A stretch of DNA of 40,023 nucleotides from a virus. Its lineage: Duplodnaviria > Caudoviricetes. A model generated the notes under the pieces. That model saw only the letters and a list, made by a program, of their open reading frames with translations. It ran no database searches and had not been told where the DNA came from. Both the position numbers and the translations under genes were made by a program. The DNA lies in the IMG/VR virus record IMGVR_UViG_3300028586_000771, positions 1-40,023 of that record. One strand, given 5' to 3'. Shown piece by piece: positions 11,388 to 40,023 of the stretch. Within the stretch, counting starts at the first letter, position 1, and every line of letters begins with the position of its first letter.

Positions 11388-11640
11388 TTTGTTTCTTTGC
11401 TTCCTGCTCTCTTATCCAATCAAGTTCACGCACACGGCGCGCCCATTCGTCAATAGTCAGGTTATAGGGATTGATTTTTAAATGGTAAGACAAGCCTATA
11501 TTAACCTGCCTTAGCCATGTAGTCCATTTAAACATTCGCTTAGCCCATTCGGCTGTACTAACGGTATGAACTGATTTTTTTTGCGGTGCCTCGCCTGTGG
11601 GAACGTTCAGGGATAAAGAGGCATCCGCTAAAGCTTTTCC
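11380..11640 (-). CDS. C-terminal extension of tail assembly chaperone via -1 frameshift (not in ORF track)
   Basis: Slippery G GAA AAG at 11640-11634; the -1 frame is open to TAA at 11380 (…WLRQVNIGLSYHLKINPYNLTIDEWARRVRELDWIREQEAKKQNG). Confidence 0.75.
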   Translation of the reverse strand, partial: GKALADASLSLNVPTGEAPQKKSVHTVSTAEWAKRMFKWTTWLRQVNIGLSYHLKINPYNLTIDEWARRVRELDWIREQEAKKQNG

Positions 11641-16081: not shown

Positions 16082-17071
16082 TTAGTTAGAAAATAGTTTG
16101 TTGTAGTCGTCTGGTCTCTCGCTTTTAAAAGCAAGCTGTGCCTTTTGGTCAAGCGCAACGAAATCATCGATCGTCTTAACATCGGTAGTGTTCGGGGTTC
16201 TTGTACCACCTGGTGCGGTGCGGCCGCTTAAATTTGCTTTAGCCGGGATTGTTTCAAGTACACTTTTAGCATTTTCAAAATCCATTGCTAAAAATGCTTC
16301 TTTTTTATCAGCAGGGATTTTACCATCTGTTACTGCATCAGTAACCAAAGTGGTGTGTGCTGCAAGGCTGATGTTTTTAGCCTCTGCTTTTAGCTTTTGA
16401 TTTTCCGTTGCAAGCTCAATAGCTTTCGTTTCAGCAGCATCTACACGAGCCGAAAGGCTTACAATGTGCGTTTCAATTTCTGCCTTTTCCATGCCATCCG
16501 TTGGGGCATCTTTAAGGCCAAGCGCAATAAGGCAGCGCAAGCCCAATGAAATTTTTGTACTCATTTTTGTTTCTAAATTAAAATTCGGTTCTGTGGGTGT
16601 TAGCGATAAACACATTTCTTTAATGTCGGCTTCGGTAAGTGCTATACCCTCTTTGCCTTGCAGATATAGCTGTAATGCATTTGGGTTTGATGGGATTGGT
16701 GTAATGGTGCCCTCTACAAGCTCACACTCTAAAAGCCATACGTCGCCGTTGATAACCTTTAGGTTTTCTTGGCTAAAAAGTAGCCCGACCGATGCGCCAT
16801 TTATAAAACCCCTGTCGACTTTACCCGCTACTTTGGCGGCATCCTCATCGTCCATATCAAATTCGGGTTCGCCGGTAAGCTGTGCACCCTCAATTTCAAG
16901 GTTAATCCAGCGACCTAATACAGCCGTTGTATTATTATGATGATTGGAAAGCATTACAGGGTTTTTATCAAACCGATCTCTTTTTATGCCTTTAGTAGCT
17001 ACATAAAAACCGTATGAGTTTTTTACCGTCTCATCGCTTAATACAAATCGTTTTACATCTTTTTTCGCCAT
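16082..17071 (-). CDS. Prohead protease / scaffold (HK97-type protease N-domain)
   Basis: NSYGF, NPVMLSNH, GFINGASVG, ELVEGTITPIPSNPNA; C-terminal coiled coil with AVTDGKI. Confidence 0.85.
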   Translation of the reverse strand: MAKKDVKRFVLSDETVKNSYGFYVATKGIKRDRFDKNPVMLSNHHNNTTAVLGRWINLEIEGAQLTGEPEFDMDDEDAAKVAGKVDRGFINGASVGLLFSQENLKVINGDVWLLECELVEGTITPIPSNPNALQLYLQGKEGIALTEADIKEMCLSLTPTEPNFNLETKMSTKISLGLRCLIALGLKDAPTDGMEKAEIETHIVSLSARVDAAETKAIELATENQKLKAEAKNISLAAHTTLVTDAVTDGKIPADKKEAFLAMDFENAKSVLETIPAKANLSGRTAPGGTRTPNTTDVKTIDDFVALDQKAQLAFKSERPDDYNKLFSN

Positions 17072-19325: not shown

Positions 19326-19502
19326 ATGAAAGCAGTATATAAAAGAGTAGCCACCTATCAAATAGGTGTAGACATATTAGGGTTCCCAATCTTTGTACAA
19401 CACGAAATTTATCAGGATAACCCGGTTCGCACAAAAAAGGGAGGCAACCACAAAGCCCTTAGATGGATAACCTGTATTGTAACGCTACTTAAACAGCATT
19501 AA
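19326..19502 (+). CDS. Small hypothetical protein (58 aa, below ORF-track cutoff)
   Basis: MKAVYKRVATYQIGVDILGFPIF…LLKQH exactly fills the gap between terminase and gp36. Confidence 0.55.
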   Translation: MKAVYKRVATYQIGVDILGFPIFVQHEIYQDNPVRTKKGGNHKALRWITCIVTLLKQH

Positions 19503-19962: not shown

Positions 19963-21178
19963 GTTTAAAAAATATAGGAAAAGCGGTATTAGCCTTGCTG
20001 CACAACAAACCACCAAGACCGCACCACCACGCGGCAACTTTAGCGTTGCACCTAAGAGTATAAGCAGAACCCGACAGGATATAAAAGCCTATGTGCAATC
20101 ATTAAACGTGGCTCGTAATGCTGAGGCTCCAAGATGGTGGCCTTTTCAATTGTTGCTTAACGATATTTTCATGGATGCGCATTTGCGCAGCCAGGTGCAG
20201 AACCGTATAAATAAAAGCATCGCTGCGAGCTTCATTTTTACAGACATGGCCGGTAACGAATTGGAGGAGCTTACTAACCTGCATCAAAATGCTACATGGG
20301 TAAGTAACCTTAACCGTTATATACTGCAATCCATTTACTGGAAACATAGCCTTGTAGAATTTAAGTATGAAGATGGCCAGTTTAAATGCGGGCTGATACC
20401 CCGAACTAATATAGAGCCCGTAAATGGTTTATTCTTTAAAGATTACCACGATGATCTAAGCAGCTTTAGCTATAGGGATATGCCCGAATATGGCTCATGG
20501 ATAATGGAGTTTGGCGACCCTGACGACTTAGGATTGCTTAATAACTGTGTGCCTCATGTACTTATGAAACGTTTTGCGCAAAGCTGTTGGAGTGAGCTGT
20601 GCGAGATTTACGGCATACCACCACGTGTAATGAAAACCAATACACAAGACCCCGCAATGCTAAGGCAGGCCGAAAGGATGATGACCGACATGGGAGCTGC
20701 TGCATGGTTTATAATTGACAGCTCAGAAGAGTTTGAATTTGCACAGGGTGTATCTACTAATGGGGAGGTTTATAAGAACCTGATACAGCTTTGTAACAAT
20801 GAAATGAGCATGGTTATACAAGGTGGTGTGATCGGTCAGGACACAGCCAATGGCAACCGATCTAAAGAAGAGGTTTCGCAGGGCCTGCTTGATGACTTAG
20901 TTAACAGCGACCTTGCATTACTGGAACAATATTGGAATACTACCGTTATACCTGGCTTACAAAAATTGGGCATACTGCCTAAAAATGTTGTTTACGGTTA
21001 TCCTAAAGCTGAGGACTTGGATAAACTATGGTCTATGACAAAGGATGCGTTACAGCATTATGATATTTCGGCTGAGTGGGTAAGCGATACCTTTGGCATC
21101 CCTGTAGAACCTAAGAAGCAGGCACAACAGCAAAACAAACCACTATCCCTTAACCTTAACCCTGATTTTTTCGTTTAA
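19955..21178 (+). CDS. Portal protein (DUF935, Mu gp29-like)
   Basis: DAHL, WSELCEIYGIPPR, CNNEMS…GG, GNRSKEEV. Start at 19955 preferred over 19931. Confidence 0.88.
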   Translation: MSKFKKYRKSGISLAAQQTTKTAPPRGNFSVAPKSISRTRQDIKAYVQSLNVARNAEAPRWWPFQLLLNDIFMDAHLRSQVQNRINKSIAASFIFTDMAGNELEELTNLHQNATWVSNLNRYILQSIYWKHSLVEFKYEDGQFKCGLIPRTNIEPVNGLFFKDYHDDLSSFSYRDMPEYGSWIMEFGDPDDLGLLNNCVPHVLMKRFAQSCWSELCEIYGIPPRVMKTNTQDPAMLRQAERMMTDMGAAAWFIIDSSEEFEFAQGVSTNGEVYKNLIQLCNNEMSMVIQGGVIGQDTANGNRSKEEVSQGLLDDLVNSDLALLEQYWNTTVIPGLQKLGILPKNVVYGYPKAEDLDKLWSMTKDALQHYDISAEWVSDTFGIPVEPKKQAQQQNKPLSLNLNPDFFV

Positions 21179-21209
21179 GCCCCAAAGCCTGGCATGGGTA
21201 TTTTGGGGC
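21166..21209 (+). other. Candidate -1 ribosomal frameshift signal linking portal to MuF
   Basis: T TTT TTC at 21166-21172, 6-nt spacer, GCCCCAAA/TTTGGGGC stem (21179-21186 / 21202-21209). The -1 frame is open and is the MuF frame. Confidence 0.7.
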
Positions 21210-21210
21210 A

Positions 21211-22779
21211 TTGCATGGCCGCTTATCGTTTCTTTACGACTGCAATTGCGAAGATTGCAAAGCAACGCCTCAGCAACTTGCAACCTTATCTACAGGTAAG
21301 CCGTTTAAACAGCTTTTAAATACCGTTGAAAAGGCATTTAATAAATTGCATGAGTTGGGCAGCTACAAGCCTGAGGACTTAAATAAAGTAAAGGAATACA
21401 AGGCACTCGTTACTCATACCGCTAAGATTTTTAATACTGCGGTACAGGACAACGATATCCCTGCTGCAATGCTTAACAGCCTTAAAAATGACATTTATTT
21501 GTTTTCGGGGTTGCGTACGCATGCCGAACTATTTGAAGCCTCGAGGCAATTGCTAAGCGATGATGGGCAGGTAAAAGGCTTTAGCCAATTTAGCCGTGAC
21601 ATAGCGAAAATTAAGGCGAACTATAATCAAACGTATTTAGATGCAGAATACAATTTTGCTCTTACATCTGCACAAATGGCAGGGCAATGGGCTGCGTTAA
21701 GCCCAGATTATAATTTGCAATATCGCACGGCAGCAGATGAGCGTGTACGCGATACGCATGCCGCCTTGCATGATATTACATTGCCTGTAAACGACCCGTT
21801 TTGGCTATCCTATTACCCGCCTAATGGTTGGGGTTGCAGGTGCGATGCGGTGCAGGTTCTTAAAAGTAAATATGAGGAAAGCAACCCCAATATTGCAATA
21901 ACTCGCGGCGAAGCTGCCACCAGTCAGATCGGTAAGGATGGTAAGAACCGCTTAGAAATATTCCGTTTTAATCCAGGTGCACAAAAGGTAGTTTTCCCGC
22001 CAAACCATCCCTATAATAAAGTGAGTGGTGCAGATGTAATTAAAGAGAATGTCAAAAATGGCAGCTTCAAAGTTACACCTGACATCTTGAAAGAATTTGA
22101 TAAGAGAGAGATTTATGTGTATGAGAAAGGGCGTGGTATAGAATTTTTTAACGAGAACTTTAAAGGTTTTGACTTTATTGAACTTGACAAAAATATAAAT
22201 GAAATTGCCCAGGCAAATGGTTTTAAAATTAATCAGAGAAATTTAAGCTTTTATGAAGGTAAGGTAAATATTGAGTATAGGGCTAAGGATGGCAAGTTTA
22301 CTATGGTGCGATCGTTGTATCTCGATGGCACTATAAAGACCGTATCGCACGACCTCTTAATGCTTAATAGTGACCTACAAGGCGGTGGTCTCACAAAAAA
22401 CTTGTTTAAGCAACTTTACAAACAGTATCAAAGTGCAAGCCTGCAACAAATTGAGGTGCATGCAAACATCGATATTGGTGGTTATGCATGGGGTAAATAC
22501 GGATTTTCCGCAATTAGAAAATTAGATGTAGATTATATTTTAGAAGGTGCCGAAAGATTAGCTAAAAGAGGCGACCTGACCAAATTAGAGCTTGACCACT
22601 TTAAAGGATTGTATAAAAATCATTACAAAGTAAAAGATGCAGGGCCATTCCCTATGCACGACATTGCTCAAACATCATACGGTAAGAAAGTTTTATTAGG
22701 TAGCGACTGGTATGGCACAATTGATTTAAAAAATAATGCGCAAAGGCAGATTTTTGAAGACTACTTATTAGGGAAGTAA
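21211..22779 (+). CDS. MuF (Mu gpF-like minor head protein) with C-terminal GNAT-like extension
   Basis: LQYRTAADERVRDTHAALH…DPFW…YPPNGWGCRC MuF core; C-terminal LQGGGLTK…IEVHAN…GGYAWGKYGF. Only a TTG start near the 5' end. Confidence 0.85.
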   Translation: MHGRLSFLYDCNCEDCKATPQQLATLSTGKPFKQLLNTVEKAFNKLHELGSYKPEDLNKVKEYKALVTHTAKIFNTAVQDNDIPAAMLNSLKNDIYLFSGLRTHAELFEASRQLLSDDGQVKGFSQFSRDIAKIKANYNQTYLDAEYNFALTSAQMAGQWAALSPDYNLQYRTAADERVRDTHAALHDITLPVNDPFWLSYYPPNGWGCRCDAVQVLKSKYEESNPNIAITRGEAATSQIGKDGKNRLEIFRFNPGAQKVVFPPNHPYNKVSGADVIKENVKNGSFKVTPDILKEFDKREIYVYEKGRGIEFFNENFKGFDFIELDKNINEIAQANGFKINQRNLSFYEGKVNIEYRAKDGKFTMVRSLYLDGTIKTVSHDLLMLNSDLQGGGLTKNLFKQLYKQYQSASLQQIEVHANIDIGGYAWGKYGFSAIRKLDVDYILEGAERLAKRGDLTKLELDHFKGLYKNHYKVKDAGPFPMHDIAQTSYGKKVLLGSDWYGTIDLKNNAQRQIFEDYLLGK

Positions 22780-22977
22780 CTCATTGTATTGTGTTGAATA
22801 TTTGGCTATATCTTTTTCTGTTACACCATAAAGGCTTGTAACGTCAGAAACTGAGTAACCATTACGCATGGAGCGTATAGCAGAAAACACCCGGTGTCTT
22901 GTAGCTGTATCTTCTGATACAGCAAACTCCGAATGCATTTTTGTAGTAAGTTCTTCCTTAAAGGTTCTATCTGCCAT
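22768..22977 (-). CDS. Small convergent protein, candidate immunity/antitoxin
   Basis: 69 aa; overlaps the MuF stop tail-to-tail; own TACCTTTG box 5 nt before the ATG. Confidence 0.65.
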   Translation of the reverse strand: MADRTFKEELTTKMHSEFAVSEDTATRHRVFSAIRSMRNGYSVSDVTSLYGVTEKDIAKYSTQYNELLP

Positions 22978-38722: not shown

Positions 38723-40023
38723 CGCTTTTTAAAAAAGTAAAAGACTATCCTGAAAGTTTTCTTAATGATGAGGTGCTGGTGTCATTAGCGTTGGCAATGA
38801 TCGAAGAGGCGAGGGTACCGGTTGATACTACTATACCATTAAAAGAGAATGGTGGCTCATATAGTATATATGGTGAAGGGCAGATAGAGCAGGGGGCTAA
38901 AGATCAGATGGATATAGCCATGAAACTGCCTGTAACGGTTGCCGGAGCTTTAATGCCCGATGCCCACCAGGGTTATGGCCTGCCGATAGGCGGGGTATTG
39001 GCAACAAAAAATGCAATTATACCTTATGGTGTGGGTGTAGATATAGGTTGTAGGATGGCACTGTCTGTTTATGACATTCCGGAAGAACATTTTTTGCTTA
39101 ACGAAGCTAAATATAAAAGGGAGCTTATTGCACATACTAAATTTGGCGCAGGGCACGGAAATCATGGTAGGTATAAAGCAGACCATGATGTGCTCGACAG
39201 CAACGATTTCAACATGACTCCTTTTATTAAAAAGCTGCACGATAAAGCCTGGTCGCAATTAGGAACGTCGGGTGGGGGTAATCACTTTGTAGAATTTGGT
39301 ATTATAGAATTTGAAGAAAGAGATGAGGTGCTTAATATTGGTAAGGGCCGTTATGTAGGATTGCTTACGCACTCAGGTTCAAGGGGTTTTGGTGCAACTG
39401 TAGCAGGGCATTATACTCAGCTTGCAAAGCAAATTTGCAAACTGCCAAAAGAAGCTGCTAACTTAGCATACCTCGACCTTAACTCTCAGGAAGGGCAGGA
39501 GTACTGGATAGCCATGAACCTTGCAGGCGACTATGCATCGGCATGCCATCAGGTAATACATGATAAATTAACGACTGCGATTGGAGCCCAGGTACTTGCC
39601 AAAGTAGAGAACCACCATAACTTTGCCTGGAAAGAAGTACTAAATGGCGAAGAGGTTATTGTACACCGCAAAGGTGCTACACCGGCTGCTAAGGGTGTTA
39701 TGGGTATTATTCCCGGAAGTATGACCGCGCCTGGATTTTTAGTAAGAGGCAAGGGAGAAGCGGGCGCCATAAACTCGGCATCGCATGGTGCGGGCAGGCA
39801 AATGAGCCGTACCCAGGCTATAAAGAGCATTACAAAAGCCGATATGAGGCAGGTGCTTAAAGACCACGGCGTATCTTTAATAGGTGCCGGTCGCGACGAA
39901 GCGCCAATGGCCTATAAAGATATCGATGCCGTTATGGCATCGCAGACCGACCTTGTAGATGTAGTAGCCAAATTCACTCCAAAACTGGTGCGCATGGCCG
40001 ATGACGGAAGCAGGGAAGATTAA
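38719..40023 (+). pseudogene. rtcB: 3' part of interrupted rtcB; catalytic domain intact
   Basis: MPDAHQGYGLPIGG, VGVDIGC, GGGNHFVE, HSGSRG, HHNFA, HRKGAT, PGSM, SASHGAGR, DEAPMAYK; open frame from 38713 to the stop at 40023. Confidence 0.93.

Follow-up and report, generated by a model that had tools for sequence, protein, structure and literature searches.

A provirus record of 40,023 bases (IMG/VR record IMGVR_UViG_3300028586_000771; "the window" below refers to this entire stretch), representing a Flavobacterium-type prophage with a Mu-like organisation, contains at the junction of two of its head genes a signal that very probably directs programmed -1 ribosomal frameshifting, by hairpin-stimulated tandem slippage of tRNA-Phe at U_UUU_UUC. 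The two genes are that for the Mu-type portal protein and, directly 3' of it, that for the MuF protein. By means of the slip a single message would give both a 415-residue portal and a 949-residue fusion of the portal with MuF and a C-terminal GNAT-like domain. The layout on which this proposal rests is confirmed: the portal gene ends with the codons CCT GAT TTT TTC GTT TAA, and the heptamer T TTT TTC contained therein, in codon register, is followed 6 nucleotides later by a GC-rich stem, just as a previous sequence-only reading of this DNA had stated. Furthermore, the putative slip signal is kept across about a hundred diverged Bacteroidota phages.

The slip site, spacer and hairpin

The -1 frame opens exactly at the heptamer, after a TGA, and reads FFRLSPKAWHGYFGALHGRL, continuing into MuF with no intervening stop, and the first start codon in the MuF frame is the TTG (21211) at the 3' foot of the stem; both features had been noted earlier and are borne out. 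The predicted products are a portal of 47.2 kDa and a fusion of 107.9 kDa. The size given by the sequence-only reading, about 940 residues and about 105 kDa, has to be replaced by 949 residues and the above mass. Both strands of the window together contain 51 heptamers of the form T6Y, and only the one at 21166-21172 has a GC stem of at least 7 base pairs at a distance of 5-9 nucleotides.

The stem-loop has a folding energy of -15.9 kcal/mol (z -2.1), which 3 of 200 shuffles match, and longer segments that include the stem are not more stable than their shuffles (z -0.7 to -2.1); therefore the case rests on conservation, not on the energy of this particular hairpin. A search by eye for a pseudoknot at the junction of this phage showed just short loop pairings. 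An upstream stimulator resembling a Shine-Dalgarno sequence is absent here and is not conserved, being found at 24 of 114 loci against 697 of 5700 background windows (12%). The fold of the TTG region (-11.6 kcal/mol, against -9.6 kcal/mol at the portal's own start) says little on occlusion of the start. An assembly error at the junction was considered and ruled out, since the contig of a second sample is identical over 20941-21327 and the junction is also conserved.

A GC stem beside a T-run has the look of an intrinsic terminator, and the hairpin could be conceived as a transcription terminator, a pause or an RNA-processing site, with the relation of the frames as a by-product. We find this scarcely credible: on the coding strand the T-run lies 5' of the stem, while on the other strand it reads as A's lying 3', which is the wrong arrangement either way, a terminator scan gives no call, and no Rfam family scores above threshold. 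Moreover, such a function predicts neither the codon register nor the open -1 frame, both of which are expected of a frameshift signal.

Conservation of the reading phase in related phages

Four viral scans and seven annotated phages provided a set of 255 loci, 245 of which have both a MuF match and the portal stop on the contig (7 are without a MuF match and 3 without the portal stop); deduplication at <90% portal identity left 127 non-redundant portal/MuF junctions. MuF lies in the -1 phase relative to the portal at 110 of these junctions, in phase 0 at 13 and in phase +1 at 4. The sequence-only reading had named random phase among homologues as the observation that would speak against it, and the phase is clearly non-random. 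A scan of GTDB, which was not deduplicated and overlaps the viral set, yielded 80 loci, comprising 74 in phase -1, 3 that are fused, 1 with a later indel and 2 without MuF on the contig.

Twelve of the 13 phase-0 loci are true in-frame fusions. The remaining one (L131) and the phase +1 locus L184 each combine an intact signal with a later indel, and these two, along with L200 and L322, were excluded as loci that are broken at another place while their signal is intact. The hankyphage p00 and Elizabethkingia TCUEAP3 have the same arrangement as this phage, with the signal present. Three lineages, namely lotta8-1, FPSV-S1 and L248, are without the signal, and each has an ATG in the MuF frame. 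L248 is a lineage inside the clade that has lost both heptamer and stem, and its upstream ATG in the MuF frame (+1) overlaps the end of the portal.

Selection on the heptamer and stem

The heptamer T TTT TTY is found in register at 103 of the 110 phase -1 junctions, and likewise at 71 of the 74 phase -1 GTDB loci. An FFx terminus is present in 109 of 120 portal homologues and could in itself be a mere protein motif. The silent positions were accordingly assessed in 103 portals picked by the terminal FF in the protein, with expectations derived from the codon use of each gene. The codon before the FF ends in T in 103 of 103 cases (40.8 expected), although it is drawn from 13 different codons for 12 amino acids; the first Phe codon is TTT in 102 (63.9 expected) and the second is TTC in 92 (39.1 expected). 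Internal FF pairs of the same genes display the pattern in 4 of 36 instances. These counts are given with no P value, the sequences being related. The bias at silent sites indicates that the signal resides in the RNA, and not only in the protein. The portal stop follows 3 nucleotides past the heptamer in 94 of 109 cases.

Seven phase -1 loci depart from T TTT TTY: two have A AAT TTT, one C CTT TTT and one G CTT TTT, two (fF4 and Peternella) have A-run sites, and in one the portal is broken upstream with the signal intact. The A-run heptamers of fF4 and Peternella, where MuF is in the -1 frame, are possibly a second slippery type in the Winoviridae.

The stem was evaluated in the 114 loci with the heptamer (103 phase -1 and 11 fused). 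A perfect helix of at least 7 base pairs is present at +6 in 79 of them, where random portal positions give 5.2% and shuffles 6.1%, and the outer pair of the stem is at +6, +5 or +4 in 109. The 5' arm is other than GCCC in 23 loci (among them GGGC, GGAC, CCCC and GCTC), yet in 17 of these at least 7 base pairs form, whereas non-GCCC arms transplanted onto other loci attain this in just 4.5% of cases. The mean folding energy is -14.9 kcal/mol for the 40 nucleotides after the spacer, compared to -4.9 kcal/mol upstream. The putative stem is kept with compensating changes in its arms, and the 3' structure 5-9 nucleotides downstream that is canonical for -1 frameshifting is thus indicated both by prediction and by covariation. 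The conserved terminal FF slippery site and hairpin that had been suggested as a check in relatives are present there, at silent positions as well.

The same data bear on transcriptional slippage, by which RNA polymerase would add one U on the T-run, so that some of the transcripts would have MuF in frame. In its favour, the site is a homopolymer of T, the predicted product is just what a single additional T would give, and U7 runs can cause transcriptional indels according to the available portion of PMC4066793. An extra T is actually seen in the T8 allele of L267 (F. covae AL-02-36) and in the protein P0127; it puts MuF in frame there and reads the predicted transframe sequence, and could be either a mutation or a homopolymer error. 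Nonetheless, we judge this explanation to be quite improbable. The run has only 6 T in 88 of the 103 phase -1 loci, the preference for TTC at the second Phe codon (92 of 103 against 39 expected) is a preference for breaking the run, the T-run sits in codon register, and the variants G CTT TTT and A AAT TTT retain this register while losing the run. Furthermore, transcriptional realignment is stimulated by 5' structure, whereas the conserved structure here is 3', at the spacing of a ribosome.

The start of MuF and the linker

A second alternative makes MuF a separate gene with a weak start of its own, the TTG at the foot of the stem, with the hairpin damping initiation and the terminal FF being a protein motif. 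Some start (ATG, GTG or TTG) does lie within 30 codons of the site in 56 of 103 loci (ATG in 16), the hankyphage has an ATG that overlaps the portal stop, and phages of the Pippivirus type translate MuF separately. However, the TTG, which the sequence-only reading had weighed as a possible point of initiation, is no conserved start: across 63 aligned relatives the codon at its position is TTA in 18, TTG in 14, CTG in 12, TTT in 6, CTT in 5 and others in 8. In the other 47 of the 103 loci there is no start ahead of the conserved residues of the -1 peptide, in which a Tyr is conserved in 99% and a later Leu in 94% of the 103 aligned sequences, and in all 103 loci the -1 frame is open from the heptamer onwards. 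The conservation of these residues where a start is lacking therefore suggests that the -1 frame is under coding selection from the slip site onwards. A separate gene also leaves unexplained the silent T in 103 of 103 portals, the TTT in 102 of 103, the constant -1 phase and the constant spacer, as well as the retention of the signal inside in-frame fusions (see below), where a start is superfluous. In the light of these features we hold a MuF initiated on its own to be a highly improbable account of the junction, and favour ribosomal frameshifting.

The linker that the slip would translate (Table 1) is enriched in L[AS], which has a density of 26 per 1000 residues in linkers versus 8 in portal cores; taking portal termini and linker together, the L-[AS] motif is about three times denser than in the core. 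This hints at the motif being a candidate cut site of the prohead protease, at which the cargo may be cut free. In this phage L-[AS] repeats (ISLAA, ANLSG, QQLA, ATLS) are seen in the protease/scaffold gene (16082-17071, minus strand), the portal termini and the MuF linker.

A profile of the -1 peptide run against the tails of 45 distant non-FF portals gave a best E value of 1e-4 (P0331), the next being 0.012-0.06 and reversed controls starting from 0.37, a weak hint that the LHxxLxxLY/Cys module may occur in frame on distant portals. P0331, P0272, P0267 and P0310 are distant FF-less portals that end in HxxIxxLY with a Cys/His module, resembling the peptide that directly follows the slip site.

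In-frame fusions that retain the signal

A search for longer portals recovered 87 proteins, 86 of them with both PF06074 and PF04233, and FFxxA is present at the junction in 77 of the 87. At the DNA level, 11 of the 12 in-frame fusions keep T TTT TTY, the 6-nucleotide spacer and the stem, and the twelfth has G CTT TTT plus the stem; the -1 frame of those 11 stops after 19-43 codons. Porphyromonas phage007a belongs to this in-frame type. As judged from these sequences, a slip in the fused relatives would yield a short portal, cutting MuF off. The fused relatives thus keep the signal with the opposite outcome, and hence either of the two products may be the default; apparently both are required. 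In a FastTree phylogeny of 73 portal cores, from which L131, L184 and L200 were omitted, 9 fused tips are found at 6 positions between the phase -1 tips, a pattern that recombination could mimic. In the fused relatives either MuF is present on most subunits, or their signal surpasses that of this phage in strength.

The cargo of MuF and its antisense neighbour

The -1 open reading frames range from 290 to 569 codons across the relatives. In this phage the last 240 residues are modelled with a pLDDT of 91.5 (from an 11-row alignment), and the highest-ranking matches by Foldseek and VIA have the GNAT fold (best Z 7.7, root-mean-square deviation 3.9 A, 142 aligned residues). Q-G-x-G is invariant in this domain, and one homologue is labelled GNAT by its source. 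Comparison with PDB sequences and Pfam gave no match, and ESM Atlas matches were below 0.9. With moderate confidence the domain can be assigned a GNAT fold with the acetyl-CoA-binding motif A; the earlier GNAT label holds as a predicted fold.

Among the loci the GNAT domain is restricted to four lineages, and a 69-residue antisense open reading frame is present in all four of these and at no other locus. Prediction of a complex between the GNAT domain and the antisense protein scored 0.89 (best of 3 controls 0.00), and the mark used for this score is reached by 116 of 157 solved pairs versus 2 of 215 mismatched pairs. The runs share at least 77% of contacts, the pLDDT of the partner is at least 84, and the contacts include the Q-G-x-G region. 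The two proteins are therefore likely to be a toxin-immunity pair, their binding being a prediction of the models. An antisense open reading frame of at least 45 residues follows MuF in 57 of 102 loci, a count that has no chance control, and the hankyphage has an annotated one.

The nearest named relative is a Flavobacterium rivuli prophage (L255), whose portal is 96% identical. Its MuF differs in the tail (483 versus 537 codons) and has no GNAT domain, and by comparison of the two sequences the difference appears to be a recent cassette swap after the MuF domain.

A model for loading of MuF into the head

The PF06074 profile and the predicted fold identify the portal as Mu-type: the model aligns best to the portals of JBD30 (Z 17.5, root-mean-square deviation 6.7 A over 292 residues) and Mu (Z 16.6, 5.9 A over 275 residues) over residues 47-393. 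The folded core ends near residue 393 and the tail, 394-415, which ends in DFFV, is of low confidence in the model; hence the slip site would lie after the folded crown. In solved portals the crown faces the interior of the head. We propose that ribosomes pause at the stem, whereupon both tRNA-Phe would re-pair one base back, from UUU UUC to UUU UUU, so that the TAA is missed and reading continues. Fusion subunits would then enter the 12-mer portal ring with their tail after the crown, and the slip rate would determine how much MuF, with its cargo, is brought into the head. A rate of 8-17% would give 1-2 copies per 12-mer, the number known for SPP1 gp7. Speculatively, cleavage by the prohead protease at the L-[AS] motif may release the cargo, which may leave with the DNA; the antisense protein is predicted to bind and neutralise the GNAT domain in the lysogen. 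In the fused relatives it is the short portal that would arise from this slip, in the manner of dnaX. The portal of phage Mu is said to lose its C-terminus in maturation; a literature search gave no support for this.

U_UU.U_UU.C, of which IS elements make use, ranks in the most efficient class of slippery sites in E. coli (PMC4066793, available portion). In the available parts of a virion mass spectrometry study of the hankyphage (PMC12135933, S6 Table), MuF is represented by 3 peptides (9% coverage) and the portal by 20 (48%); MuF was recovered in the 250-85 kDa slice, as were Gam and the head-tail adaptor, in a search that used annotated proteins only, and this recovery therefore says little on a fusion. 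A broader proposal, that the Bacteroidota Mu-like phages including the hankyphage practise a Gag-Pol-style loading of toxins with release by the protease, the default product having flipped several times, is offered tentatively, as a possibility that we regard as somewhat doubtful.

Several observations weigh against the frameshift model or parts of it. 1) The loci are related, and their counts are not independent events; the overlap of the GTDB set with the viral set adds to this. 2) A MuF-frame start is situated near the portal stop in 9 of the 103 loci, with the hankyphage among them, and, together with the 56 loci that have some start within 30 codons, such cases allow that some members may also make free MuF. 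3) The isolates fF4 (L095) and Peternella (L097, Peternella_1) carry only A-run heptamers. 4) A mostly short ring in the fused relatives would need an unusually high slip rate. 5) The Z scores of the GNAT matches are below 8, the mark of the tool, and Pfam finds no family.

Genomic context

The minus strand encodes the protease/scaffold and capsid genes, and the plus strand the terminase, adaptor, portal, MuF and neck genes. A 58-residue open reading frame of no family lies between the terminase and adaptor genes (19326-19502, plus strand), and a gene for an RtcB-family RNA ligase at the right end (38773-40023, plus strand) is probably host flank. The features of the portal/MuF region are collected in Table 1.

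Table 1. Features of the portal/MuF region, in positions of the window
Feature	Position	Strand	Remarks
Mu-type portal gene (DUF935/Portal_Mu), 415 residues	19931-21178	+	PF06074 E 1e-69; phrog_113
TGA in -1 frame	21163-21165	+	directly 5' of slip site; bars upstream entry to MuF frame
Slippery heptamer T TTT TTC (U_UUU_UUC)	21166-21172	+	X XXY YYZ codon register; kept in relatives
Open -1 frame, slip site to MuF stop	21166-22779	+	predicted 949-residue portal-MuF-GNAT fusion
6-nucleotide spacer GTTTAA	21173-21178	+	contains last portal codon and TAA
GC-rich stem-loop, predicted 3' stimulator	21179-21209	+	31 nucleotides; 8 outer and 4 inner pairs
TTG called as MuF start by open-reading-frame callers	21211-21213	+	Leu codon of conserved LHxRL helix
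Linker: LHxRLxxLY helix, Cys cluster, L-[AS] motif	21211-21291	+	aligned -1 peptides
MuF domain, best PF04233 stretch	21586-21849	+	PF04233 E 3e-13; phrog_220
C-terminal GNAT-like domain, candidate toxin	22060-22776	+	QGGG acetyl-CoA-type motif; model and fold matches
69-residue antisense open reading frame, candidate immunity protein	22768-22977	-	overlaps MuF stop; GNAT-linked

Significance and comparison with known systems

No report of frameshifting at a portal or portal-MuF junction was found in the literature, with the proviso that subscription papers and bioRxiv supplements may hold one. The words "portal" and "MuF" are absent from the first 300,000 characters of a review of frameshifting (PMC5009743), and "portal" is absent from the listing and two supplements of the GeneTack study (PMC3711429), its file 1 aside. 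The junction carries a strongly conserved signal for a known kind of recoding, between two genes for which no printed description of one was found.

With such a signal the portal would join the few phage structural genes that are recoded, and would do so throughout a wide Bacteroidota clade to which the common gut hankyphage belongs. The signal also offers a testable answer to the question of how MuF proteins and toxins enter the head in 1-2 copies. It would follow that the annotated starts of MuF are wrong in this clade, and that genes annotated as portal-MuF fusions probably also make a short portal. With a slip rate of 10%, about 28% of 12-mer rings would be without cargo (0.9^12), such that virions would differ in their toxin load. 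One signal that both extends and truncates would allow frameshift efficiency and the stoichiometry of the ring to be compared in a natural experiment.

Truncation by a -1 slip is known from the E. coli dnaX gene, in which it separates tau from gamma. The in-frame relatives match this truncating slip, but the portal/MuF sites differ from dnaX in having no conserved Shine-Dalgarno-like stimulator.

The remaining comparisons draw on the available portions of the cited papers. In the G/GT pair of lambda a -1 slip yields a short product and one extended at its C-terminus, in a ratio of 30:1 (PMC5009743, PMC7911831). The portal/MuF junction resembles it in that an X XXY YYZ heptamer stands close to where a gene for phage morphogenesis ends; however, here the proteins are head components, portal and MuF, the extension contains a variable enzyme, and relatives have the inverse arrangement. 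Nor does the portal/MuF slip site belong to the two genes that immediately precede the tape measure gene. This phage has an ordinary G/GT-type site of its own, G GAA AAG at 11634-11640 (minus strand) with a 3' hairpin of -18 kcal/mol, where that gene pair ends; its -1 frame is open to the start of the tape measure gene. In T7, T3, A2, A118, A500 and PSA, frameshifts extend capsid and tail proteins (PMC5009743), and there too a fraction of the virion subunits gains a C-terminal domain; those extensions are mostly outer Ig-like domains, whereas here it is the 12-mer portal whose subunits would be extended, and the predicted place of the cargo is the interior of the head. Retroviral Gag-Pol, in which an enzyme is fused to a structural protein for packaging and subsequently cleaved (PMC5009743), matches the purpose proposed here, though cleavage in these phages is only an inference.

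In-frame portal-MuF fusion genes have been reported from the Microbacterium clusters EA3, EA5, EA8 and EB, with no recoding described in the available text (PMC7302621). They likewise place portal and MuF in one polypeptide, but by their description they are plain fusions, unlike the Bacteroidota fusions studied here, which keep the slip signal at the junction. The closest parallel in gene content is provided by the MuF polymorphic toxins, where muf comes right after the portal gene and encodes a variable C-terminal domain, and a small partner gene is present (PMC5576092). SPP1 gp7 binds the portal and is present in 1-2 copies per capsid (Jamet et al. 2017, PMC5576092). All three features, namely MuF after the portal, a variable C-terminal domain and an adjacent small candidate immunity gene, recur in this phage. 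In that work MuF is treated as a separate protein, and "frameshift" has 0 occurrences in the available text of PMC5576092; here, in contrast, the candidate immunity gene is antisense, and the attachment of MuF to the portal is predicted to be covalent and made by translation itself.

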